Shown here: positions 14,271-44,782 of the stretch, piece by piece
How the letters are laid out: each line of letters begins with the position of its first letter
Numbering within the stretch: the first letter of the stretch is position 1
Program-made: the position numbers and the translations under genes
NCBI GenBank assembly: GCA_035705495.1
Contig: DASSWB010000026.1
Span: forward strand, 13,206-77,205
Direction of reading: 5' to 3'
Source: Salinimicrobium sp.
GTDB taxonomy: Bacteria > Bacteroidota > Bacteroidia > Flavobacteriales > Flavobacteriaceae
DNA: 64,000 nt
Notes under the pieces: model-generated
The model's input: only the letters and a program-made list of their open reading frames with translations
Databases searched by the model: none
Told to the model about the DNA's origin: nothing

Positions 14271-16478
14271 TTATTCACGGGTTACCTTATCTATACCGTT
14301 GATTTTTTTAAGGTGTTCCATAAGGGTTTTTAATATGGAATTGTTTTTGACAATGACCGTTATTTTCCCTGTAAAAATGCCGTCGGAACTTTCAAAATTT
14401 ATTTTTCGGATATTCACGTTCATGTTGTTCGAAATTTCCCGAGTCACTTCATTCACCAAACCAATGTTGTCAATACCGGTCAAACTGATCACCGATTTAA
14501 ATTCTTCTTGAGACGAATCGATCCATTTTGCGGAAATGATCCGGTACGCAAAATTACTCTGGAGTTGAATCGCGTTTGGGCAATCCTTTTTATGAACTTT
14601 AATGCCTTCGCTAACGGTCAAAAATCCGAAGACACTGTCGCCAGGAATTGGATTGCAACAATTGGCAAGTTTGTAATCAAATTTTTCTTCTTCTTTTCCA
14701 AAAACAAGCTGATCATAATTTGCCGTTACCTCATCCTTATCAATATCCTCAGCAACATGAGGTTTTCTGATCTTGTTTTTGATGAAACTCATTAAAGCGT
14801 TGCTTCGGGAAGCAGCAAATTCTTTTAATTTGGTATTTTCAATACGACCTATCCCGACTCGATAGAATAAATCCAGACTTGTTTTCAGTTTGAAAAAAAT
14901 GACAAGATCGTTCACCGTCTTTTCATTGAACGGAATTTTCTGTGCCTTCAGTTTTCGCCGAAGAATTGCTTTTCCTTCTTCCGCAATTTCCTTTTTCTCG
15001 TCTTTAAGAGACGATTTAATTTTGGCCCTCGCCCTTGCTGTTGTAGCGTAATCCAACCAGTTGGCCGTAGGTTTGCTTTTTTCCGAAGTAATAATATCGA
15101 CTTGGTCACCGCTCTTTAGCTCGTGACTTAAAGGAACCAGTTTTCCGTTAACGCGGGCACCTCTTGTGTGTAAACCGATTTCTGTATGAATGCTGAAAGC
15201 AAAATCCAGTGGTGTAGCACCTTTGGGCAAGGATTTTAAATCCCCTTGCGGTGTGAAAACGAAGATTTCCTTGGAATATAAATTCAGTTTAAACTGCTCT
15301 ACAAAATCGACCGCATTGATTTCTGATCCTTCCAATACTTCTTGAAGTTTGTTGAGCCATTCTTCAAGTCCTTTTTCCTCTTGAACCGAGCCTTGTTTGT
15401 ATTTATAATGTGCAGCGTAACCTTTCTCCGCTATTTCGTTCATTCTATCACTCCGGATTTGCACTTCCACCCATCTTCCTTTTGGTCCCATTACGGTAAT
15501 ATGAAGCGCTTCGTAGCCTGTGGATTTAGGGGAAGAAATCCAGTCTCTTAATCGCGTTGGATTGGGTCGAAAATGATCCGTTACGATTGAATATATTTTC
15601 CAAGCGATAAATTTTTCATTCGATGCATCCGTATTGTAAATGATTCTTACGGCAAATTTATCATAGACTTCATCAAAACTTACATTCTGATTTTTCATTT
15701 TCCGCCGTATCGAATAAATAGATTTTGGTCTTCCTTTTATATCGTAAGTTAAATCCTCTTTATCCAAAGAATCTTTGATCACCTTGGTAAATTCCTTTAT
15801 ATAAAGATCTTGTTCCTCTTTACTTTCTTTGATTTTCGTGAAAATTTCGTTGTAAACTTCGGGCTCGGTATATTTTAACCCAAGATCTTCAAGGTCTGTT
15901 TTTATATTGTACAACCCGATACGGTGTGCCAAAGGAGCATAAATATATAAGGTTTCAGAGGCAATTTTTTCCTGTTTGTCCGGTTGCATGGAATCCATTG
16001 TTTGCATGTTGTGCAACCGATCTGCGATTTTTATGATAATTACACGAACGTCATCATTCAACGTAAGTAACATTTTACGGAAGTTTTCGGCTTGAAGTGA
16101 AACGTCTTTATCGTGCTTGAGATGCGAAATTTTTGTGAGTCCGTCAACAATATGGGCGATGGTTTCGCCGAATAATTCCCGAAGATTTTCAAGCGTGTAA
16201 GAAGTATCTTCAACAACATCATGTAACAGGGCAGCAGCGATACAAGTTGCATCCAGACCAATTTCCGATGCGACAATTTTCGCAACGGCGATTGGATGGA
16301 AAATATAAGCTTCGCCCGATTTACGCCGCTGGCCGTTATGTGCATCAACGGCGGTATCAAAAGCCAAACGAATCAATTTTTTATCTTCTGCGGAAAGCGT
16401 TTGATAACTAATTCGAAGCAATTCTTTGTACTGCCTTGCGATCTCTTTATTTTCTTGCTCTAATGCTGCTTCTGTCAT
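14271..16478 (-). CDS. bifunctional (p)ppGpp synthetase/hydrolase, RelA/SpoT homologue
   Basis: 735 aa. HD hydrolase motif (LLHDVVEDT), synthetase domain (YEALHITV), TGS and ACT-like C-terminus. Confidence 0.95.
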   Translation of the reverse strand: MTEAALEQENKEIARQYKELLRISYQTLSAEDKKLIRLAFDTAVDAHNGQRRKSGEAYIFHPIAVAKIVASEIGLDATCIAAALLHDVVEDTSYTLENLRELFGETIAHIVDGLTKISHLKHDKDVSLQAENFRKMLLTLNDDVRVIIIKIADRLHNMQTMDSMQPDKQEKIASETLYIYAPLAHRIGLYNIKTDLEDLGLKYTEPEVYNEIFTKIKESKEEQDLYIKEFTKVIKDSLDKEDLTYDIKGRPKSIYSIRRKMKNQNVSFDEVYDKFAVRIIYNTDASNEKFIAWKIYSIVTDHFRPNPTRLRDWISSPKSTGYEALHITVMGPKGRWVEVQIRSDRMNEIAEKGYAAHYKYKQGSVQEEKGLEEWLNKLQEVLEGSEINAVDFVEQFKLNLYSKEIFVFTPQGDLKSLPKGATPLDFAFSIHTEIGLHTRGARVNGKLVPLSHELKSGDQVDIITSEKSKPTANWLDYATTARARAKIKSSLKDEKKEIAEEGKAILRRKLKAQKIPFNEKTVNDLVIFFKLKTSLDLFYRVGIGRIENTKLKEFAASRSNALMSFIKNKIRKPHVAEDIDKDEVTANYDQLVFGKEEEKFDYKLANCCNPIPGDSVFGFLTVSEGIKVHKKDCPNAIQLQSNFAYRIISAKWIDSSQEEFKSVISLTGIDNIGLVNEVTREISNNMNVNIRKINFESSDGIFTGKITVIVKNNSILKTLMEHLKKINGIDKVTRE

Positions 16479-16675: not shown

Positions 16676-18422
16676 ATGAAACCCATTAAATTTCTGATTG
16701 CGCTTACCACAATTTCGCTCCTGATTAGTTGCGAATATGAAGAGGATGTTGAAACAAATATGAGTGGAGTATCTTTGGAAGAATACAGCGTTACCAATAT
16801 GAATGGAAAACAGATCCAGATGAATGCTGCACTTGTAGAAAAGTTGAGGTTGTTTAGGAATACACCTATGTTAACTGGAAAAATTGGTGATACAATCTCG
16901 GTTTCCATTGATACTACATTTGCAAAATATGTTGAAAGTAAAGATGGATTATATCATTCCTATACTTTTTCGTCATTAAATGATAGATATAAGAATATTT
17001 TGTTTTCCCAAAAAAGAGATGGTACGTATGGAACTTTTTTAGTAGAATATAATTTAACTCCAGAACAGAAAAAGTCGCTCTTGTTAGGTGAGGAAATTTT
17101 TTTTACTAATGAAGTAAAAACCACTGCTATAGAATTTACCGGTGGAAATCTCGAGATGGCAGTGAAAATGAGCGCCTGTATCGACGTTGCTTGGACATTC
17201 ACACCAGGAGAACCTTGCGTTGCCGGATTTTATTTTGGTGATCCCCGTTGTACACATACTTCAGGACCTGATGCGCCAACACCTGGGCAAATGGTAATGA
17301 CAGTTACAAACAACTGGTGGCGGTGGAAGCGTCAATTTTGGCTCATTACCTAACTCAAATCCTCCAAGCGGAGGGGGTATTTATACAGACATTAATTCCA
17401 CCTTTAATCCAGTTACCACCTACACCATGCCACCCGCCGTAAGCAGAAGGAAAATTTTCTTCATGAATTTAAATCCAGATCAGTTGGCATGTTTCAATAA
17501 TACCACAACCACAGGTTCTGGGTTGACTCCTCAAGATTCACTTCAAGTGATGAATTTTTTGGAGAACAGTTTGTTGGAAAATGGTTTGATTGCAGATTCT
17601 TCTATTTATCCTGGTGATGCCTCGGGTTTTGCTGCGGAAGCTATTACGACTATTTGTGAGGATGGTGAAGTGGATTGGGAGGAGCAGGTGATTCTAGATG
17701 ATTCTTTTACTCAAAACGACTGCCTGTATGGAATTTACCAGCAAATGGGTGAGGCGCCAATATTCAACGGCTACTTACAAAGTTTTGATAGTGATGGTTC
17801 TGTGGCAGATTTGAAGTTTAAAGCTGATAGCAACTTTGCGACAAATAGGGAAACAAAATATCATAATGCTATGGCAATAACGGATCCTCCATTGAATTCC
17901 GTTTTAATTAATATTACTTTTAACACTGATGTAACCACTACAGGAAATATTCTAGATAAACCTGATGTTTTCAAAGCTGTATCGCTTATACACGAGATTT
18001 TACATGCTGAAATGTATAGAAAAATGTTGGATGCAGTGAGAGCCGCTGAAATAAGCGGAAATAGTTTAGATTGGGCCAATTGGACCAGCGAGGAGTTTTA
18101 TAACGATTTTTTGGATAGTTTAGAAAATAAATATTTTGGAATATTTGATTACTTTACAAGGTATAAATATGGCATACCTGTTGGGAGTAACCCTAACGAT
18201 TACCAACACCAACAGCTGGCAGAACATTATCGGGACATAGTAAAGCAAGCATTAACAGAATATGATCCTAATCTCACAGAGGCACAAAAAGAAGCACTTT
18301 CGTGGATTGGTTTAAATAGCGCAGATATTGTGGCTTGGCAAAATTTAACACCAATAGACCAACAAATAATAAACAACAACATAGAAAACATGAAAAACAA
18401 CTTAGAAAATGGATGCAATTAA
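16676..18422 (+). pseudogene. lipoprotein with C-terminal HExxH (zincin-like) module, split by a frameshift within 17301-17353
   Basis: ORF 16676..17353 has a lipobox (LLISC). Its frame ends in junk-like NNWWRWKRQFWLIT*. The frame of ORF 17427..18422 is open from 17301 and reads as a G/S/P/N linker (TTGGGGSVNFGSLPNSNPPSGGGIYTD...) before the tracked Met. LIHEILHAEMY contains the HExxH. Confidence 0.55.
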
Positions 18423-18855
18423 AAAAACTGCTTTTGTCGCTTTGTTTATCCCTTGGCTGATCTTTTCACAGAAAGAAAACGGAACATTGTATCCAAAAGA
18501 TACGATTTATATCCAATATGTACACACACAACAAAATAATGATTGGAATGCAAAATTTAAAAGAAACTATCGAGGAGAATTTGGGATTTTCTTCAATATC
18601 GAAAGTAGTAGTGGAGACATAGCACTATTTTATTCTTTTAAGAAAAAAGCAGATACTTTATGTATAGAGTACTTGAACAATTTTCATTTATCCAGCTTGG
18701 AAGAGATTAATGAAAAGAGGAACGAATGGATTTTTAACAACAAACGGCCTCCTGCAGATAGAAACGGAGTCTTTCAAACTTATGTTGTCGAAATAATCTC
18801 GAACAATAAATTTGTAAAATATCCTGTGATATGGCGAAATGAGGGAAAGTATTGA
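18409..18855 (+). CDS. small exported protein P1 (immunity/inhibitor-like, uncharacterised)
   Basis: 148 aa. Signal peptide MDAIKKTAFVALFIPWLIFSQ. The start overlaps the HExxH gene stop by 14 nt. Shares the beta-rich pattern of P2-P5 (DTIYIQY ... TYVVEII ... YPVIWRNEG). Confidence 0.6.
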   Translation: MDAIKKTAFVALFIPWLIFSQKENGTLYPKDTIYIQYVHTQQNNDWNAKFKRNYRGEFGIFFNIESSSGDIALFYSFKKKADTLCIEYLNNFHLSSLEEINEKRNEWIFNNKRPPADRNGVFQTYVVEIISNNKFVKYPVIWRNEGKY

Positions 18856-18903
18856 TTACTGATTGGTCTCATTCTTTTTGCTGTCAATAGCTTCTCCTTA
18901 ACT

Positions 18904-19167
18904 ACCTATCAACAACAATTGGCAGATTTTATTTATAATAACCATGAATGGAATAGTGAAAATTCAAATTTCGTCAGTCAAATGCAATTATATTTTGGTG
19001 TAAATTGGAAAGAAAAAACTGCGGAGGCTTGTAGTTGGATAGGTCTTACAGAAACAGATCAATATTACGATTTTGTAAATGGATTATCTGCGGCTGAAGC
19101 ATTAGGTTTCGATCAAATATCCAGACAAAAAATGTTCATTAATGATGCCAATTCAAATTGTAATTAG
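18904..19167 (+). pseudogene. orphan 3' fragment paralogous to the last ~85 codons of the HExxH lipoprotein gene
   Basis: TYQQQLADF...CSWIGLTETD...NDANSNCN* parallels DYQHQQLAEHY...LSWIGLNSAD...NLENGCN* of the full-length gene. It has no HExxH and no ATG (the tracked start is TTG at 18919). Confidence 0.6.
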
Positions 19168-19168
19168 T

Positions 19169-19678
19169 ATGAAAAATCTTTATATATTTTTCTTAATAAG
19201 TTTTGGTCTCAATTTTTCTCAAAATAATATTGGTCCAGTAGATAAGAAAGGATATGATTTGTATATCGTTTATGAAGAATTAGATAAAATTTTCACAAAA
19301 CCTATAGACACTACAGATGAAAATTTACACTATAGTGTTTATACCTTAAGAATCCCTAACCAAAATAATCCAAGGTTTGTATTTAATTTTAAAGATAAGG
19401 ATAGTCTAGAGTTGGGCTATACCCTAAAGGGAGGCAATGGTACGGACTTTGATTTTAATTTTTCTCACAATAGTAAAGAACATGAAAAGTTTTATATTGA
19501 AAAAAATAAACACTTAGAGAATCAAATATCTATAAATCATATTTTGGCTTCTAATCTTAAAGTATTCGAGAGAGTATTAGAAAAGGCTAATATAATATAT
19601 ATATTGGAGGTAGTTGATGAAGAAAGTTTCGAATACATAGCAAGAGAAGTGAGTTATTCAAAGGATATTAAGCTATGA
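19169..19678 (+). CDS. small exported protein P2 (uncharacterised)
   Basis: 169 aa from ATG 19169 (MKNLYIFFLISFGLNFSQ signal peptide). It starts 1 nt after the orphan fragment's stop, mirroring the toxin/P1 junction. The tracked ORF 19142 start is probably spurious. Confidence 0.6.
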   Translation: MKNLYIFFLISFGLNFSQNNIGPVDKKGYDLYIVYEELDKIFTKPIDTTDENLHYSVYTLRIPNQNNPRFVFNFKDKDSLELGYTLKGGNGTDFDFNFSHNSKEHEKFYIEKNKHLENQISINHILASNLKVFERVLEKANIIYILEVVDEESFEYIAREVSYSKDIKL

Positions 19679-19741
19679 TTTATTAAGGGCACAAGAAAGA
19701 ATATTATACCAACTGATTTATCATTTGATAATAGGTGATAG
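19679..19741 (+). repeat. remnant of a P5-type gene 3' end (FIKGTRKNIIPTDLSFDNR*)
   Basis: Near-identical at the DNA level to 21350-21410, which encodes the P5 C-terminus (YEGTRKNIIPTDLSFDNKG*). Confidence 0.6.
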
Positions 19742-20267
19742 CCGCTCAATTCTAATTGATTCACGTATAAAAAATCTGATATTTATTATTGCGTTCTTGT
19801 TTTCTATAAATGTTTTTTCTCAAGAAAAGCAGAATGTGTATCAGGATATTTATATCATGACAAATTACTTTACTCAGGATTTTTTGGGATATAAAGCCTA
19901 TTTTGATATTAAAAGTACAGATTTAAGATTCACGCATGACACTTATTTTTTCAGGATAGACTTTCCGGATATTGATTATAGTAGCCTCTATAGTTTGGGA
20001 AAACCTGTGAATATAGATTCGATAGAGGTGATGGAGCCTAAGCAGTTTTTTTACAATAAATCAAATAATTTTATTCACACAGAACTAAGTCTTTGGGAAA
20101 AAGAAAACAACACACGAATTTTTATCGTTGCTGAAATTCCTTCAAGTCGATTAAGAAGACAGGCGGATAAATCAAAAAAGCACATGATTTGGGACGTGGA
20201 CTATGTTGGGACGATGAAAGAATTCTATCAAATGCTGATGACAAAAGGTTTGTTATCGGGAGATTGA
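19725..20267 (+). CDS. small exported protein P3 (uncharacterised); start codon uncertain
   Basis: Signal peptide IKNLIFIIAFLFSINVFSQ. The position homologous to the P2 ATG is ATA here. The only tracked start is TTG 19725, inside the remnant above. Resembles P5 (IHTELSLWEK/IHNELSLIKE; VDYVGT/LIYEGT). Confidence 0.5.
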   Translation: MIIGDSRSILIDSRIKNLIFIIAFLFSINVFSQEKQNVYQDIYIMTNYFTQDFLGYKAYFDIKSTDLRFTHDTYFFRIDFPDIDYSSLYSLGKPVNIDSIEVMEPKQFFYNKSNNFIHTELSLWEKENNTRIFIVAEIPSSRLRRQADKSKKHMIWDVDYVGTMKEFYQMLMTKGLLSGD

Positions 20268-20295
20268 AAAATATCCCCAGAAGATTTGAATAAAA

Positions 20296-20418
20296 ATGAA
20301 AAACGTATATTTTCTGTTAATCGTAATATTGCTGTCTTGTGAAGTTGTTTCACAACAAACCAGATTAAGTATTTTGGATATTATAGAAGCTTTTCACGAT
20401 AATAACCCAGACTGTTAA
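20296..20418 (+). CDS. 40-aa mini-ORF with a lipoprotein-type signal (MKNVYFLLIVILLSCEVVSQQ...), possibly a truncated cassette
   Basis: Read by hand; it falls below the ORF-track length cut-off. The stop lies 2 nt before the P4 ATG. Confidence 0.3.
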   Translation: MKNVYFLLIVILLSCEVVSQQTRLSILDIIEAFHDNNPDC

Positions 20419-20420
20419 TT

Positions 20421-20876
20421 ATGAAATACAAATTGTACATATTATTTTTCATGTTTTGTTTACAAAAAGGCTTAGCTCAAAAAAAACCGCAGCTTTGTAT
20501 ATGCTTTACTGAAAAAACAAAATATATTGAAGTCAATACCAGTGAAGATTCCACAAAAACCAGTTTTACAATTGTTAGAGGAGGATTTGAAACGAAAGAA
20601 AAAAGAAAAAAAAATTTAGAAAATTATCAAGCGGGGCCTCCTTCGGCATCGGGGCAACCCAGTTTTACTATTAATTACTATACGTCAAAAAGACCAGAAA
20701 GAATTGATTTGATAAACTCCAATGATGAGTGCGAATTCTTCATTACATTAGATCAGTTCCGTCAAAAAGAATTTGGCTTTCCAAAGGGAATAGGAGGCTC
20801 TCAAGTAATTTTTTTGAAAAAACTCCCTGATGGCTCATTTTTAAAATGGAATCCTATACTAATGGCACGCGAATAA
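20421..20876 (+). CDS. small exported protein P4 (uncharacterised)
   Basis: 151 aa. Signal peptide MKYKLYILFFMFCLQKGLAQ. Late motif SQVIFLKKLPDGSFLKWNPILMARE, as in the other P proteins. Confidence 0.55.
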   Translation: MKYKLYILFFMFCLQKGLAQKKPQLCICFTEKTKYIEVNTSEDSTKTSFTIVRGGFETKEKRKKNLENYQAGPPSASGQPSFTINYYTSKRPERIDLINSNDECEFFITLDQFRQKEFGFPKGIGGSQVIFLKKLPDGSFLKWNPILMARE

Positions 20877-20945
20877 AACTGATTAATCTTTTGAATGTAA
20901 GGATAAATTCAACATTAGTTTTAATGATAAAGAAAGTAGGTTATT

Positions 20946-21410
20946 ATGAAACGGTTAATTCTTATTGCTTTATTAATTTTCAGCTTTCAATATGCTGTTT
21001 CCCAGAATGATACTATTTATCTAATGGTAGAAGATGTTTCCATTCAATCAAGAATAGGACAAGAATTATCTTGGGGGTTTTTGGTTAAAAGCCATGATGA
21101 TCGTTTCATTTGTGATTATTACAAATTTCAAATTCCAAATTGGATGGGCATTGATGAGAAAGGAGAAGATATTTTTTTTAACGCTGATCAGTTAAAAAAA
21201 GGAATTGATTTGGATTCCATTCATTTCGAAACCATTTCGTCTTTTATTCTTAATAAAAAACCTTGGGAGATACATAATGAATTAAGTTTGATAAAGGAAA
21301 TATTTATTATTGGACGACAAAATGGCAATTATTATTTCTTGCCATTAATTTATGAGGGCACACGAAAAAATATTATACCAACTGATTTATCCTTTGATAA
21401 TAAAGGATAG
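20946..21410 (+). CDS. small exported protein P5 (uncharacterised)
   Basis: 154 aa. Signal peptide MKRLILIALLIFSFQYAVSQ. Then DTIYLMVE ... KEIFIIGRQNGNYYFLPLIYEGT. Confidence 0.6.
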   Translation: MKRLILIALLIFSFQYAVSQNDTIYLMVEDVSIQSRIGQELSWGFLVKSHDDRFICDYYKFQIPNWMGIDEKGEDIFFNADQLKKGIDLDSIHFETISSFILNKKPWEIHNELSLIKEIFIIGRQNGNYYFLPLIYEGTRKNIIPTDLSFDNKG

Positions 21411-21439
21411 TGCCAGTTGTAATTGATTCACGTCTTAAA

Positions 21440-21527
21440 AAGAATCTTTATATATTCATTTTTAACACATTTTGGTATCAATTTTTCTCAGAATAACAAT
21501 GATCCCATAGATAAGAAGGGATATGAT
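21440..21527 (+). pseudogene. decayed 5' fragment of a P2-type gene (no ATG, indel, stops)
   Basis: By-eye alignment shows roughly 85% identity to 19172-19258 (AATCTTTATATATT...TTTTGGT.TCAATTTTTCTCA.AATAA...TAGATAAGAA.GGATATGAT). Confidence 0.6.
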
Positions 21528-21540
21528 GATTATAATGAAT

Positions 21541-21571
21541 AAAAAAGCCGCAGAATTGCGGCATTTTTTTT
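21541..21571. terminator. bidirectional intrinsic terminator (GCCGCA-GAAT-TGCGGC, A6 before, T8 after)
   Basis: Read directly. It closes the plus-strand island array and sits about 40 nt beyond the minus-strand M48 stop. Confidence 0.7.
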
Positions 21572-21608: not shown

Positions 21609-22841
21609 TTAATTTTCCAAATTTTTTATTCTTTGAAAAAGAGTGGGATGTGAATAATGTATAAAAACATAAGCGGGATGCGGCGTTAAATTACTTAAAC
21701 TGTTCTTGGATAATTTTTTAAGACCAGAAATCAATGCTTCAGATTCAAAAGTATTTTTAGCATATTCGTCTGCTTGATATTCGAATTTTCTAGAGATTAA
21801 ATTCATTATTATTCCTGTTACCTCGGAAATCGGTCCGTATAAAATACCGAAAGCAATCAAGCCGACATGAAAACTTGGTTGTTCAACTCCCAAAGCATTT
21901 GAAAGCAACGGATTGTTTATGAAAAGCGAAAGCAACCACAACGTAAATCCGGTGATCAAGATGGAAATAATCAAATTGAAAATAATGTGCTTCTTTTTAT
22001 AATGACCGACTTCATGCGCCAAAACGGCAACGATTTCGGGTTCATCCAAGTCATTGATCAAGGTGTCGTACAGTGTGATTCGCTTTTCTTTTCCAAAACC
22101 AGAAAAATAGGCGTTCGCTTTTGTGCTTCTTTTTGAACCATCAATTACGAAAATATTGTCCAGTGTAAAACCGACTTTTTGCGCATAAGTTTCGATTTGA
22201 TCTCTTAAAGAACCTTCACCTAAAGGTGTTTGTTTGTTGAAAATCGGCACAATCAATTTTGCATAAAACATATTGACGAAAACCGAAAAAATCGCCACCA
22301 ATCCCCAAGTGTAAAGCCAGAAATTATCGTCGGTGATTTGGTAGAACCAAATGATAAGTGACAAGATCCCGCCGCCCACGATAATCATCATTGCCCAAGA
22401 TTTGAGCTTGTCTAAAAAGAAAGTCTTTTTTGTGGTTTTATTGAAACCGTATTTTTCTTCAATCACAAAAGTGTTGTAGTAAGAAAACGGAAGACTTATG
22501 ATGTCACTTGCGAGCATTATAATTCCGAAGAAAATCAAACCAATTACAATTTCATTATCTGAAATGGAACGTGCAATTTCATCCACAAAATCAAATCCGT
22601 CGAGGAAGAGAAAAAGCAATGTTACAATGATTGAAAATGTAGAAGAAATAATTCCGAAGCTGTATTTTTCCTTTTTATAACGCATTGATTTCTCGTATTC
22701 TTCAGCGTTGTAAATATCTTGCAACGGTTCAGGAATCGGATCGTTAAAATGTTTGGCGTTCAGGAAATCGAGAATTTTTTCAATTAAAAAATCCAATAAT
22801 ATAATTCCGATGATAATGTAGAAAAGTGTGATTGAAGACAT
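21609..22841 (-). CDS. M48 family (Ste24/HtpX-like) integral-membrane zinc metalloprotease
   Basis: 410 aa. Multi-TM N-terminus and VLAHEVGHYKKKH (HExxH). The last 21 codons are duplicated at 16527-16592. Confidence 0.85.
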   Translation of the reverse strand: MSSITLFYIIIGIILLDFLIEKILDFLNAKHFNDPIPEPLQDIYNAEEYEKSMRYKKEKYSFGIISSTFSIIVTLLFLFLDGFDFVDEIARSISDNEIVIGLIFFGIIMLASDIISLPFSYYNTFVIEEKYGFNKTTKKTFFLDKLKSWAMMIIVGGGILSLIIWFYQITDDNFWLYTWGLVAIFSVFVNMFYAKLIVPIFNKQTPLGEGSLRDQIETYAQKVGFTLDNIFVIDGSKRSTKANAYFSGFGKEKRITLYDTLINDLDEPEIVAVLAHEVGHYKKKHIIFNLIISILITGFTLWLLSLFINNPLLSNALGVEQPSFHVGLIAFGILYGPISEVTGIIMNLISRKFEYQADEYAKNTFESEALISGLKKLSKNSLSNLTPHPAYVFIHYSHPTLFQRIKNLEN

Positions 22842-40502: not shown

Positions 40503-43500
40503 TTAGCGTTTCAAAGAAAAATGCCCGCGATATTCCCTTCCATCTTCCAAAATCACACGATACCAATAATCGGTTACCGGCATTGGATGCCCGTTATAGC
40601 TTCCGTTCCATCCTTCGGAATTCGGGTTCAGTTGCTGCATTAGCTTACCATACCGATCAAAAATAAAAATTTGTGCATCTGCTTCGTGGGTTTCGTCCAC
40701 ACCTGTCACTTGCCAGTAATCGTTGTAGCCATCATTATTTGGCGTGAAAAATTTCGGGAAACCCACAACGCTGAAATTAGCAGGAGTGATTCCGCAGCCC
40801 AAAAGATCGCGAACGTAAACTGTATGTAAACCCGGACCAACATTTTCAAAATAATTTTCAGCTTGATAAGGTCCGTATATGTTGTCGAGCGAAAATTCGT
40901 AGTTGCCATTATTTTCCGAAGAAAGCAAAACCGAAACTGAATTATTGAATTCTATTCCTTCAATAATTATATCTTCTATAACTGCGGAATTGGACGGAAC
41001 GACTAGAATATTTCGTGTGTTCTCACAGCCCGAAGAAATATTTGTCACCGTCACAGCATAATTTCCGGGTTCATTAATTTCGATTTCTGCTGAAGTTTCT
41101 CCGTTTGTCCAAGAAAATGAGTAGGTTTCGGAATTCTGATTGATTCCAGCACTCAAAGTAATTGTATTGGGAAATTGGTCAAGACAATAAATCAATTCTT
41201 CATCTTCAGGCAAATTGGGAATCGTATTTACAATCAATTCGACTTCACTGATACCGAAACATTCCAAATCACCGCTTTCTACCCTTGCATAAATCATTTG
41301 TTCAAAAGGAACCGTATTTGAAAAATTATTGGAAAGTGGAGAAATTTCAAGCAGTGCGTTTTCTTCAGTTTCAAAATACTGAATCGTCAAATCGGCGGGT
41401 TGATCCAATAAAATTTGTTCGTTTGCATCGTTTAAATTAAACTGAAAAAATCCATCGGTATCATTGTCGCACGCAATTAATTGTGCGTCATTGGCTTCGG
41501 TCATATTCAGCGTCAACAATAATTCTGCAATTCGAAAACAGCCCGTTTCTGGATTTTTTACTTTTGCAAAAATCGTCTGCGGATTTGTTACGTTAGGAAA
41601 CGCCTCTGGATTTTCAATACCATTAATCCCGTTTTCTGCATTTGAAAAAGTCGTGAAATACGCAACTTCCACATTTTCCGCGTCATCAGTGATGTTTTCT
41701 TCGGCCAACAACAAATTGAACAAGGAGTTTGGACCAGCTTGATCGAGAAAACACTGTGTGAGCTCGGAATCAAATGCTTCTGGTAAAGGATTGATTAGAA
41801 TAGGGATTTCAAATATGTCGTAACACAGCGGATTGTTCAAATTTTTGAATCTGAAAAAAATCGATGTTTCATCGGGATCCAATGCATATTCAAATGGTAA
41901 ACTAATTGCATCGGTTTCATTTTCAGCATCAGCAAAAGAATGGTAAAAACTCTTTTCAAAAACAAAAGGATCGTCATTTTCCAAAATTGAATGTGCATAT
42001 TCCGAAAGATCAAAAACCACGGGAACACTATTCGGGTTTTCACAAACCACAATTGCGGAATCAACAGCAATTACCGGAGCTTCCGAAGCAAAGAGTGTGA
42101 AGGTTTTTAAAACAAAACAATTAGAGTTTCCCGAGTTTTCATAACGGACGAAAATTTCCTGCTCATCTGTGGTGATTTCATACAAATCTGGTAAGGCATC
42201 AATTCGCTGTTCGGCCGATTCTTCGGTTCCAAAAAATAGAATATTCAAAAAATTTTCATCCTCGTTCTCGAGTAGTTCCGTCCTTTTTTCTGATAAATCA
42301 TAAACGGCATTGCCTTCAGGATCGTCGTTGCAAACGGTCTCGTCTTCAGGATCTGTATTTATTTCCGGATTTGAAAAATACGTGATATCCGCCAATCCCA
42401 ATAACGGACAAGTACCGTCGTTTTTGTCAATTTCCAATTTGTAATTTTCGGAATAAGGCAATTCCACATTTTCCGGCTGACTTATCTCAAGTTGGAATGA
42501 AGTTTCATCTTCCAGTAATTCGTCGTTTTTATACCAAGTATAGGTGGCGCCTTCATATACATCGCCTTGTAAAGTGAATGTTTCTCCATCGCACAAGAAC
42601 AATTCTGTTTCGACCGATTCAGAGATATTCACAATATCTATATAAGTGGAAAAAAGCGATTGGATAAAAGGCGGAAGACCAATGGTAGAACTTCGATTTC
42701 CATCTACATCAACCAACATTTCAGTCTCGGTGTATTGCAAATCCGCACCTAAAACTTCAGGATTTTTTATGACGCCCAAATAATCATTTTGTGTGGAATT
42801 AAAAGAAAATAACGCACGATAGATTCTGCCATCAGGCGCCAATTGCAAAGCACCGGCATTATAAATGGTGTACAAATCCCCATTTTCATTGGGAATGATA
42901 TATTCTGAAGCTGCAATTTGATTTTCGGGGACGGTTAAATCGTATTGTACGATAAATCCGTCACCACTTCCATCATCACCTAAATTAATTGAAGCATATA
43001 ATCTGTTTCCTGACGAAGAAAATTCTATTCCGTAGGGAGAATCTCCATTGTACAGTTCATTTTCATTTGAAACAACACCAGTAGCATTATCAAAATCATA
43101 CAACAGGACTTTCCCCGGTCCGTTTCCACCTGTAACCGTTCCCAATCCCAAATGTGCGACTGCAAGTTGATCGCCCTGTGGAGAAACTTTCATATAACCC
43201 AAAGAATTCCGTCTGTAACCAGAAAGCGGAACTGTAACGCCAACAGTTGAGATTACAGGGGTTTCATTAATGCCGCTTTCACTAACTTCAAAAGCATAAA
43301 AAGAATCAATGAAGTGTGTTACAATCCAAAAGGAGGAACAGTTGTCGCTAATTACAGCGGTGATTTTTTCTGAACATTTATAAGCACTTTCTTCACTGTT
43401 GCTCGGATTATAAGTGATTAACGGTAAATTTTTTTGAGTTTGAATAACAGCACCCTTACCGTTGTTTAACGTCATATCCACCAAAGAATACATGAGTCCG

Positions 43501-43907
43501 TTGTTCTCACCATCACCATTGTTATTATTCGGATCTGAATCGACGTTGGAATGATGCGGTTCATCTACGGTAAAAACGTAGTAAATATTGGTAACTCCGG
43601 GTTTGGGAACAATTAAAGCTGAAGAAGTACTTGATTCATCACCTTTTAAATCCGTCCCATTAAGCATTACCTGATGGGTTTTATCATAAACAATGGAACC
43701 ATCGGTATAAAACAGCAAGTTTCCATTTGAGTCGGAAATAGTTGTGCAGCCTTCCAAAGTAGAAAGTTGTCCGTCTGTGAGGGCTGTTGGGGGAGTGGTG
43801 CTAAAATCCAGACCCGCATGATTTCCGAAGTACCAGTAATTGGCTTCACCTTGAGCCAAAATAACAGTACAATTAAGAAAAAAAAAGATGATAAGAAACT
43901 TCTTCAT
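40503..43907 (-). CDS. T9SS type-B sorting-domain secreted protein (large adhesin-like)
   Basis: C-terminus FTPNNDGYNDYWQV...DYWYRV...GHFSLKR. At least 4 copies of the F.T...A....N.I....Y......Q.I(F/Y).R(V/Y)....C module. I start it at ATG 43907 (MKKFLIIFFFLNCTVILAQ) rather than at the tracked 44030. Confidence 0.8.
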   Translation of the reverse strand: MKKFLIIFFFLNCTVILAQGEANYWYFGNHAGLDFSTTPPTALTDGQLSTLEGCTTISDSNGNLLFYTDGSIVYDKTHQVMLNGTDLKGDESSTSSALIVPKPGVTNIYYVFTVDEPHHSNVDSDPNNNNGDGENNGLMYSLVDMTLNNGKGAVIQTQKNLPLITYNPSNSEESAYKCSEKITAVISDNCSSFWIVTHFIDSFYAFEVSESGINETPVISTVGVTVPLSGYRRNSLGYMKVSPQGDQLAVAHLGLGTVTGGNGPGKVLLYDFDNATGVVSNENELYNGDSPYGIEFSSSGNRLYASINLGDDGSGDGFIVQYDLTVPENQIAASEYIIPNENGDLYTIYNAGALQLAPDGRIYRALFSFNSTQNDYLGVIKNPEVLGADLQYTETEMLVDVDGNRSSTIGLPPFIQSLFSTYIDIVNISESVETELFLCDGETFTLQGDVYEGATYTWYKNDELLEDETSFQLEISQPENVELPYSENYKLEIDKNDGTCPLLGLADITYFSNPEINTDPEDETVCNDDPEGNAVYDLSEKRTELLENEDENFLNILFFGTEESAEQRIDALPDLYEITTDEQEIFVRYENSGNSNCFVLKTFTLFASEAPVIAVDSAIVVCENPNSVPVVFDLSEYAHSILENDDPFVFEKSFYHSFADAENETDAISLPFEYALDPDETSIFFRFKNLNNPLCYDIFEIPILINPLPEAFDSELTQCFLDQAGPNSLFNLLLAEENITDDAENVEVAYFTTFSNAENGINGIENPEAFPNVTNPQTIFAKVKNPETGCFRIAELLLTLNMTEANDAQLIACDNDTDGFFQFNLNDANEQILLDQPADLTIQYFETEENALLEISPLSNNFSNTVPFEQMIYARVESGDLECFGISEVELIVNTIPNLPEDEELIYCLDQFPNTITLSAGINQNSETYSFSWTNGETSAEIEINEPGNYAVTVTNISSGCENTRNILVVPSNSAVIEDIIIEGIEFNNSVSVLLSSENNGNYEFSLDNIYGPYQAENYFENVGPGLHTVYVRDLLGCGITPANFSVVGFPKFFTPNNDGYNDYWQVTGVDETHEADAQIFIFDRYGKLMQQLNPNSEGWNGSYNGHPMPVTDYWYRVILEDGREYRGHFSLKR

Positions 43908-43945
43908 TGGGAATCTGTAGAGCCCCCCAAATATAAGTATAAAAA

Positions 43946-44782
43946 TTACAAATCTCTTTTCTTCAATAGCGCGTAAGACAGGTAAATAAAAAGAACGGTC
44001 CAGATAAGTACAATCAAAATCTGGTACCAATGAATACCGTAATCTTTTTCGAATTCAGACCCCAAAGTACTTGCTGCAGATTGAACTGCATTAAAACGTG
44101 TAAACGGTTCTTTGATCAAATTGCTCATTGCCGTTAGCGGAAAGAATTGCATAATACTTTCGGCTATATCCTGACCTTTAAAAACCACCCATTCGAGCAC
44201 GCCAAAAATAACGGCTTCTACCACCCACCAGAGGAAAAGAAAACCCAAAGAAAATGCTGAACGTTTAACAAGCATACTCAGAAAAAGACAGAAGGCAAAG
44301 AAACCTGGAAGTTTGACGAAGTAAGCCAACAAGTATTCCATATCGGAAAAAATGATGGAAACTTCATTGTAATCAGAAAAAATCAAACCGAGAATAAGGG
44401 AAAGCAAAAAAATGAAAACCGTCGAAAGTGCGGAAAGCAAGACAACAATCAGGAACTTGGACATGATGAATTCCTTTTTGCTCAATCCGTCAATAAGGTT
44501 TTGCTTCAAGGTGCGCTCGCTGTATTCATTTGCGATCATGGAAACAATTACAATCGCCAAGAAGATCTTTAATAGCGCGGCAATATAGGTGTTGAAATGC
44601 CAAATGAAAGGAAAATTGAAAATCCCTTGATCCGCAACCCTAAAATTAATTTGTCCAAAATTAAATTCGATCGAAGCAATGAGCGCAATAAATGTCAGGA
44701 GGATAAAATAGGTAATCGTCAAGACTTTTGTTGAACGACTGTATTTTAATTTATGGAGTTCTATATCGAGTAAACGTAGCAT
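43946..44782 (-). CDS. ABC-2 type transporter permease
   Basis: 278 aa with about 6 TM segments. Overlaps the stop of the upstream ATPase gene by 1 nt. Confidence 0.6.
   Translation of the reverse strand: MLRLLDIELHKLKYSRSTKVLTITYFILLTFIALIASIEFNFGQINFRVADQGIFNFPFIWHFNTYIAALLKIFLAIVIVSMIANEYSERTLKQNLIDGLSKKEFIMSKFLIVVLLSALSTVFIFLLSLILGLIFSDYNEVSIIFSDMEYLLAYFVKLPGFFAFCLFLSMLVKRSAFSLGFLFLWWVVEAVIFGVLEWVVFKGQDIAESIMQFFPLTAMSNLIKEPFTRFNAVQSAASTLGSEFEKDYGIHWYQILIVLIWTVLFIYLSYALLKKRDL

Follow-up and report, generated by a model that had tools for sequence, protein, structure and literature searches.

A 64,000-nucleotide (nt) stretch of a Salinimicrobium sp. metagenome-assembled genome (MAG; family Flavobacteriaceae), referred to here as the window, contains a disrupted gene for a lipoprotein with a C-terminal HExxH domain, which is followed by an array of small exported proteins. 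The gene is called the toxin gene below, after its proposed function. In the public annotation it appears as two separate hypothetical proteins, i.e. VFM70_02975 for the 5' half and VFM70_02980 for the other half. The parts of the gene and the partner gene P1, which lies at its 3' end, are as follows.

16676..17353, + strand: 5' half of the disrupted toxin gene, 225 amino acids (aa), with signal peptide and lipobox, an acidic stretch after the lipid-bearing Cys, N-domain and Cys-rich segment
17301..17353, + strand: interval holding the frame change; two frames are open, and the +1 shift corresponds to one base extra or two missing
17301..17675, + strand: Gly/Ser/Pro/Asn linker, then a helical pre-toxin region ending in GEVD (17664-17675); helices predicted in the first model
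17658..18422, + strand: putative C-terminal toxin domain, 254 aa, numbered from 17658; from profile, conservation and AlphaFold model
18409..18855, + strand: P1, candidate immunity/inhibitor protein, 148 aa, with Sec signal peptide and predicted cleavage before an invariant Gln

The open reading frame (ORF) 16676..17353 begins with MKPIKFLIALTTISLLISC, in which the lipobox LLISC leads to Cys19 (codon at 16730-16732) and then to the acidic stretch EYEEDVE, and it ends with NNWWRWKRQFWLIT and the stop codon. A hidden Markov model (HMM) of the N-domain built from homologues matches this ORF with an E-value (E) of 6.9e-45. The W/R-rich character of its tail arises because a Gly-rich linker is read out of frame: the last 14 codons, from about 17312, are linker sequence in the wrong frame, and the tail codons TGG TGG CGG TGG AAG are the linker codons GGT GGC GGT GGA AGC one base off register. 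In the +1 frame, TAA TGA at 17295-17300 is followed by a frame that is open from 17301 to the stop at 18420-18422 and runs into ORF 17427..18422; its translation from 17301 starts QLQTTGGGGSVNFGSLPNSNPPSGGGIYTD, or in a second excerpt QLQTTGGGGSVNFGSLPNSNPPSGGG. Frame 0 stops at 17351-17353, and the two stop positions bounding the open frames therefore place the frame change within 17301-17353. Judging from the sequence, the indel most likely lies at 17301-17320, directly before GGTGGCGGTGGA.

The two ORFs are halves of a single gene, whose product is a lipoprotein of about 581 aa. The first-pass annotation had proposed that a single indel would restore a lipoprotein of about 580 aa; the repaired protein has 581 aa and is colinear with intact homologues, which are single ORFs of 573-582 aa with the identical order of parts. 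A search with the repaired protein retrieved 46 proteins, two of which (P0004, 577 aa, and P0010, 573 aa) span the entire query, and in BLASTP, P0004 and the repaired protein align colinearly throughout, with the signal peptide and the final residue both included (42% identity over 581 aa, E 1e-137). Most relatives are 450-620 aa long and consist of a lipobox, the N-domain with a conserved (S/T)Y(T/S)F...NL...Y pattern, a Cys-rich segment, a Gly-rich linker, a helical region and the HExxH domain; a lipobox is recognisable in 85 of the 121 retrieved proteins of at least 400 aa. When the homologues were checked for conserved separate genes, full-length lipoproteins proved to be the norm. A profile search with the N-domain recovered the window's own ORF 16676..17353 alone at E up to 0.001, because this domain is too divergent for that search, and a Pfam scan of the window N-domain gave no match; its relatives were found instead by a local HMM search over the fetched loci (designated by L numbers below).

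Whether the break reflects inactivation with retention of the immunity genes or an error of sequencing had been posed as alternatives, and the data favour inactivation. Over 6678 nt, indel included, the window and the Logan contig L051 (run SRR25158396) agree at 100% identity, and family copies disrupted by in-frame stops are present in the isolate genomes of Psychroflexus gondwanensis (L008), Flavobacterium sp. AED (L019) and Tenacibaculum sp. TC6 (L047). An artefact of sequencing or assembly, behind which the organism would have an intact, functional 581-aa toxin gene, is an unlikely cause of the frameshift. Such an artefact would fit a source that is a MAG and a break in a linker rich in GGN codons, at which strain variants might have been joined wrongly, and scans with an exact pattern across the frameshift and with the ORF1 protein against metagenome contigs retrieved no intact near-identical allele for comparison. 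The Logan assembly may also share reads with the MAG, so that a read-level artefact is possible. However, the indel recurs in this separately built contig, there is no homopolymer at the break, the neighbouring genes (RelA/SpoT, Fur, M48 peptidase and AcpH) are intact, and nonsense-disrupted copies occur in the three isolate genomes. It is likely overall that the toxin gene of the window is a real pseudogene. Any product begun at 17427 or 17463 would have no signal peptide, and P1 is intact; most likely, the toxin copy in this genome is inactive and its immunity genes have been retained. A programmed frameshift was rejected, as there is no slippery context and the disruptions elsewhere differ in position and kind.

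The disrupted copies in other genomes lie at 5050-6050 in L008, 5041-6100 in L019 and 1311-2870 in L047, and a copy with a frameshift lies at 5100-5800 in L012, a low-coverage MAG; the downstream P1 gene is intact in each. A truncated toxin copy of the family, also with an intact P1 gene downstream, was observed at 5962-6762 in L007.

The HExxH motif of the C-terminal domain is HEILH at 17991-18005 (H112, E113 and H116). A profile of the 254-aa domain, run against 1.84 billion representatives, matched 705 clusters (50% identity) at E up to 0.001 and 412 at E up to 1e-10; almost all of these belong to Bacteroidota, and the domain is nearly always C-terminal. A scan of one genome per species yielded 45 loci, mostly in Flavobacteriaceae (Gillisia, Mesonia, Psychroflexus, Salegentibacter, Tenacibaculum and Flavobacterium), with the remainder in Balneolales, Cytophagales, Chitinophagales and one Chlorobiota MAG. 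Over 142 sequences, H112, E113, H116 and W216 are conserved at 100%, H184, R121, N89 and C253 at 99%, D203 at 94%, Y191 at 91%, E118 at 90% and C22 at 81%. The cysteines C22 (codon 17721-17723) and C253 (codon 18414-18416) probably form a disulfide that brackets the domain, and from this pair we infer that the domain folds and works outside the cytoplasm.

The AlphaFold model of the domain, built on the alignment used for these conservation values (predicted local distance difference test score, pLDDT, 87.9; predicted template modelling score, pTM, 0.87), contains, in order, helices 21-30 and 34-41, strands 51-57, 73-76 and 83-89, the helix 103-132 bearing HExxH and a helical subdomain in which helix 182-202 carries H184 and Y191. 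As modelled, this order of elements is that expected of a zincin. The domain had been described at the outset as an unclassified, zincin-like module. The first term stands: the window protein gave no Pfam, NCBIfam or PHROG match when both halves were scanned, no Pfam toxin or peptidase model matches it at E up to 1, and a PDB sequence profile search with the domain only found no relative, just short homeodomain and bromodomain stretches regarded as chance. One of these, a weak match of LTEAQKEALSWIGLNSADIVAWQNL (residues 205-231, ~18270-18350) to the engrailed homeodomain at E 0.004, was dismissed as a chance helix-turn-helix-like stretch. With whole-protein alignments, the PDB matches were confined to Gly-rich linkers and signal peptides.

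The second term is borne out in part. The invariant HExxH lies in a helix after a beta-sheet, and zincins recur below threshold. SprT-like is the sole recurrent Pfam match in 60 divergent members (five at E ≤ 0.01 and 21 at E ≤ 0.5, best 0.0012), and Peptidase_M91 (two of the 60 members), Peptidase_M85 and PipA, all zincin effectors, also give sub-threshold matches. The weak Foldseek lists are enriched in zincins as well, i.e. a Bacteroides putative Zn peptidase, aminopeptidase N, MMP-11/12/1, ADAMTS4, phage peptidases, M34 endopeptidase, SprT-like proteins including phage ones, and AR9 zincin proteases. Counting against the assignment, Foldseek searches with two models against the PDB and one against BFVD gave nothing significant (best E 0.45 and 0.59 for the PDB and 0.022 for BFVD), and all of the Pfam zincin matches are far below gathering scores. 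The first-pass annotation had also suggested a third metal ligand from the His/Glu-rich segment QHQQLAEHYRD, which starts at 18204. By conservation, the likeliest candidate is H184 of this segment (18207-18209), 68 residues past the second His of the motif; a Glu of the segment is less likely, and E118 and D203 are other conserved candidates. Zincins rarely take their third ligand from a His on a distant helix, which also tells against the assignment. On balance, the model and the sequence comparisons make a zincin-like hydrolase, highly divergent and outside any curated family, the probable identity of the domain.

It is improbable, by comparison, that the domain is a toxin but no metallopeptidase, i.e. 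a metal-dependent hydrolase of another kind, with lipid, glycan or peptidoglycan as its substrate, or a binder without enzymatic activity whose HExxH motif is structural. That possibility would account for the lack of a significant match to any peptidase family or structure, for a high-confidence model without a close structural neighbour, and for a best third-ligand candidate that is His rather than Glu or Asp. It sits poorly with the invariance of H, E and H in the HExxH helix, with the conserved R121 and Y191, and with recurrent sub-threshold matches that are solely to zincin peptidases.

Returning to the proposed zincin-like toxin and its partner, the start of P1 overlaps the toxin stop by 14 nt (AAT GGA TGC AAT TAA in the toxin frame vs ATG GAT GCA ATT AAA in the P1 frame), and overlaps of 11-14 nt recur in L001 (Salegentibacter echinorum), L003 and L004. 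An HMM of P1 homologues, iterated over all ORFs of the fetched loci, placed a P1-family ORF immediately behind the toxin domain in nearly all of the 45 genome loci, even in those that have diverged furthest; the other homologue loci that were fetched also have one there, and the ORF usually overlaps the toxin stop. The L001 genes located behind the toxin encode proteins with 45-59% identity to P1. Members of the family have a signal peptide up to an invariant Gln, followed by conserved KDTIY, DT, F..Y..E and Y.V.W motifs, and profile and library scans found no Pfam or PDB relative. The export of the partner implies that the putative enzyme has to be controlled in the periplasm.

At the junction itself, the same 14 nt (18409-18422 in the window) encode N-G-C-N-stop of the toxin and M-D/A-A-I-K of the partner, and the same is seen in L001, L003, L004 and L009. 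Each conserved terminus therefore limits change in the other, and a duplicated immunity gene carries a toxin tail with it.

The family also shares an export signal. Among 85 full-length members, the consensus after the lipid Cys is E/Q-K-D/E-D/E, with E/Q at +2, K at +3 in 41 of the 85, D/E at +4 in 73% and D/E at +5 in 46%. In sequence, this consensus matches the K-(D/E)2 lipoprotein export signal (LES), which sends lipoproteins of Capnocytophaga, Flavobacterium and Bacteroides to the cell surface (PMC5080379). We rejected the possibility that the protein is a type IX secretion substrate, as its C-terminus is the toxin domain and a sorting domain is lacking there.

In other loci, the C-terminal domain is exchanged on the same chassis. 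Up to GGEVD, across the linker and the helical region, the full toxin and an orphan cassette of L001 share 91% identity; beyond it they are unrelated. This point of divergence therefore marks a domain boundary, which corresponds to GEVD at 17664-17675 in the window. In the orphan, the part after the junction is Pfam DUF6973 (E 4.7e-19), and a 115-aa lipoprotein comes next. Similarly, in L009 a second lipoprotein of 510 aa lies beside the HExxH lipoprotein. Its N-domain is that of the HExxH lipoprotein (E 1.7e-31, with 31% identity across residues 1-217), its C-terminus is DUF6973-like, and a 117-aa lipoprotein follows. The DUF6973 cassettes lie at 6880-8075 in L001 and 3847-5735 in L009. The partner co-varies with the domain, i.e. 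the P1 family follows the HExxH domain and a different small lipoprotein follows the DUF6973 cassettes. L001 contains four extra P1 paralogues, three of which are immediately preceded by a toxin tail of 41-68 aa. A literature search, with most subscription journals outside its reach, found no paper on DUF6973 or on the HExxH lipoprotein family.

Two further arrangements were observed. L004 encodes, at 110-520 and just upstream of an intact toxin/P1 pair, a YezG-like immunity protein (Pfam PF04634, E 5e-5), an arrangement suggesting that the loci are mixed toxin and immunity islands. Tandem toxin modules followed by three to four consecutive P1-like genes are present at 1311-7073 in L047 (Tenacibaculum) and 5068-10587 in L048 (a Flavobacteriaceae MAG), and both of these arrays are larger than that of the window.

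The array of the window comprises five small ORFs with signal peptides (P1 to P5) after the toxin gene, interspersed with remnants of toxin genes. The features downstream of P1 are as follows.

18919..19167, + strand: orphan remnant, 82 aa, of the 3' end of a divergent toxin gene (SWIGL...SNCN), directly before P2
19142..19678, + strand: P2, exported small protein, probably an orphan immunity gene; true start probably Met at 19169
19725..20267, + strand: P3, exported small protein, distant paralogue of P5; weak match to the P1 profile
20296..20418, + strand: second toxin-tail remnant, 40 aa, ending ...DNNPDC, directly before P4
20421..20876, + strand: P4, exported small protein, divergent P1-family member by the iterated P1 HMM
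20946..21410, + strand: P5, exported small protein at the end of the array; weak match to the P1 profile
21547..21562, no strand assigned: bidirectional terminator-like hairpin closing the array

The two remnants are the second- and third-best six-frame matches to the toxin HMM: the first covers model positions 183-222 (E 0.003) and the second, a weak match, positions 209-232 (E 0.07). P4 matches the iterated P1 HMM at E 3.2e-6 among all locus ORFs and at 1e-8 in a small set; the match of P2 to the P1-family profile is weak (E 1.6e-4 when seven sequences were searched), and P3 and P5 are 30% identical by BLASTP (E 2e-5). Pfam, NCBIfam and PHROG scans of the five small ORFs returned nothing meaningful. 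The G+C content is 0.28-0.31 over 18500-21500, i.e. the small-ORF array, vs 0.35-0.40 in the flanks, where the housekeeping genes for RelA/SpoT (14271..16478) and the M48 peptidase (21609..22841) are located. Elsewhere in the window, a 1175-aa protein with a CHU_C type IX sorting domain (E 2.9e-13) is encoded on the - strand at 40503-44030, and the organism therefore has type IX secretion; this ORF overlaps the upstream ABC-2 permease ORF (43946..44782) by 85 nt, probably as a result of an over-long TTG start call.

Taken together, a polymorphic surface-lipoprotein toxin and immunity system, of which the toxin copy here has been inactivated, is the likely explanation for the locus. The effector/immunity layout surmised in the first-pass annotation is upheld by the position of P1 after the domain in nearly all loci, by the C-terminal swapping and by the orphan cassettes. 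In the proposed mechanism, the intact protein would be exported by Sec and lipidated at Cys19, and the acidic signal after the Cys would flip the lipoprotein to the cell surface. From the surface or from outer-membrane vesicles, the 254-aa domain would be presented or delivered to neighbouring Bacteroidota. There it may act as a zincin-like zinc hydrolase with a metal site formed by H112, E113, H116 and probably H184, assisted by R121 and Y191; the C22-C253 disulfide would probably lock the domain, in keeping with action outside the cytoplasm on an envelope or periplasmic substrate. P1 would be the periplasmic protein that binds and neutralises the domain, and P2 to P5 and the two toxin-tail remnants would be orphan immunity cassettes left by duplication and recombination.

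Several points weigh against this interpretation. The window protein has an acidic motif after the Cys, EYEED, in which the Lys is missing; signal peptides account for part of the weak similarity of P2, P3 and P5 to the P1 profile; and no delivery machinery was identified, although no search for TraA/TraB was made in these genomes. In addition, a periplasmic partner is equally expected of a self-protective protease inhibitor. This last point leads to the main rival, namely a surface or secreted housekeeping or nutritional protease that degrades environmental proteins, with P1 only shielding the periplasm of the producer during export and no antagonism involved, as in serralysin-type protease/Inh pairs. 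The signal peptide of the partner, its translational coupling to the enzyme gene and the failure to find a delivery apparatus all agree with such a pair, and Bacteroidota display many surface lipoprotein hydrolases (PMC5080379). However, the C-terminal domain is swapped on one chassis, with a sharp junction, for an unrelated domain that has its own partner; there are orphan tails and arrays of divergent partner paralogues; one locus has a YezG-like immunity gene; the enzyme gene has repeatedly become a pseudogene with the partner kept; and the island is low in G+C. Swapping, orphan arrays, pseudogenised toxins with a kept partner and low G+C content are hallmarks of polymorphic toxin loci and not of nutritional proteases, and the swapping and the arrays make this rival unlikely, with about as little to recommend it as the non-peptidase domain considered above, if not slightly less. 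The weakest alternative, that the public annotation is right in calling two proteins and that the locus has two genuinely separate genes, for a small lipoprotein and for a cytoplasmic HExxH protein starting at 17427 or 17463, can be set aside as extremely improbable, given that the homologues are single ORFs, that the tail of ORF 16676..17353 is an out-of-frame linker, that the conserved Cys pair and the exported partner of the C-terminal domain are ill-suited to a cytoplasmic protein, and that split copies in other genomes are due to in-frame stops at differing positions.

Beyond the explanation of this locus as a toxin and immunity system, we tentatively propose that the family may represent an undescribed class of Bacteroidota polymorphic toxins, consisting of LES-exported surface lipoproteins with C-terminal domains exchanged at GEVD. 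Their commonest cargo would be a new zincin-like His-His-His hydrolase that attacks the envelopes of neighbours and is countered by a new periplasmic immunity family, and delivery might occur by vesicle fusion, by lipoprotein exchange or by another route. The toxins of Flavobacteriia and environmental Bacteroidota are poorly charted beyond type VI effectors, TANFOR proteins and gut BSAPs, and three items described here are unannotated, i.e. the 705-cluster toxin domain, the exported partner family and the lipoprotein chassis that swaps C-terminal domains. If the proposal is correct, it would provide a tractable system for studying how a surface-anchored lipoprotein crosses the outer membrane of a competitor and a way to ask which envelope substrate the new zincin-like enzyme cleaves. 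Arrays of small, exported, unannotated proteins in marine Bacteroidota would likewise be explained as immunity repertoires, and the window copy would be a decayed example, with a dead toxin and live immunity. Intact loci are available in cultured strains, among them Salegentibacter echinorum DSM 24579 and several isolates of Tenacibaculum, a genus in which some species cause disease in fish.

Among known HExxH proteins, the SprT-like/Wss1 family (PF10263) comprises cytoplasmic or nuclear proteases of DNA-protein crosslinks, in which the third His is located a few residues after HExxH, whereas the window family has its conserved His 68 residues downstream of HExxH and is exported. VgrG2b of Pseudomonas aeruginosa, reportedly described by Wood et al. 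in Cell Reports in 2019, carries a C-terminal metallopeptidase effector domain and has a periplasmic immunity protein. It resembles the proposal made here in combining an HExxH effector that acts in the target periplasm with an exported immunity protein, but its delivery by type VI secretion and its chassis are different, and no homology was detected. The zincin toxin domains Tox-MPTase1-5, HopH1/NleD (Peptidase_M91), ALF-MPTase and PVC-metallopeptidase are also C-terminal HExxH domains of polymorphic toxins (PMC3482391); they mostly occur on Rhs, type VI secretion system or PVC chassis, most are listed without immunity proteins, and their models miss the window protein.

Among polymorphic and antibacterial systems, the TANFOR toxins (PMC7073777) share with the window family their restriction to Bacteroidetes, variable C-terminal domains and adjacent immunity genes. 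They are very large proteins with the TANFOR domain at the N-terminus and a presumed link to type IX secretion, whereas the members of the window family are lipoproteins of 450-620 aa; membership in the TANFOR class was rejected, as the size and the N-domain differ. BSAPs (PMC12853789), which are antibacterial, are likewise Bacteroidota proteins anchored by a lipidated Cys and directed to the surface or to vesicles by an acidic export signal, but they are MACPF pore formers without swappable C-terminal domains, without such a downstream immunity protein and without homology to the window family. SitA/SitI are polymorphic lipoprotein toxins of Myxococcus that are delivered by TraAB outer-membrane exchange (PMC5562445, PMC8546572). 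They share with the window family an N-terminal lipobox, a conserved N-terminal escort region, a variable C-terminal toxin domain, an immunity gene immediately downstream and many copies per genome, and this likeness is architectural only, the two being from different phyla and without sequence similarity. SitA proteins are mostly nucleases that enter the cytoplasm, and their immunity is cytoplasmic, whereas the window family has an exported partner and a probable disulfide in the toxin. Unlike SitA, the window family appears to use the Bacteroidota surface-lipoprotein signal for its export.

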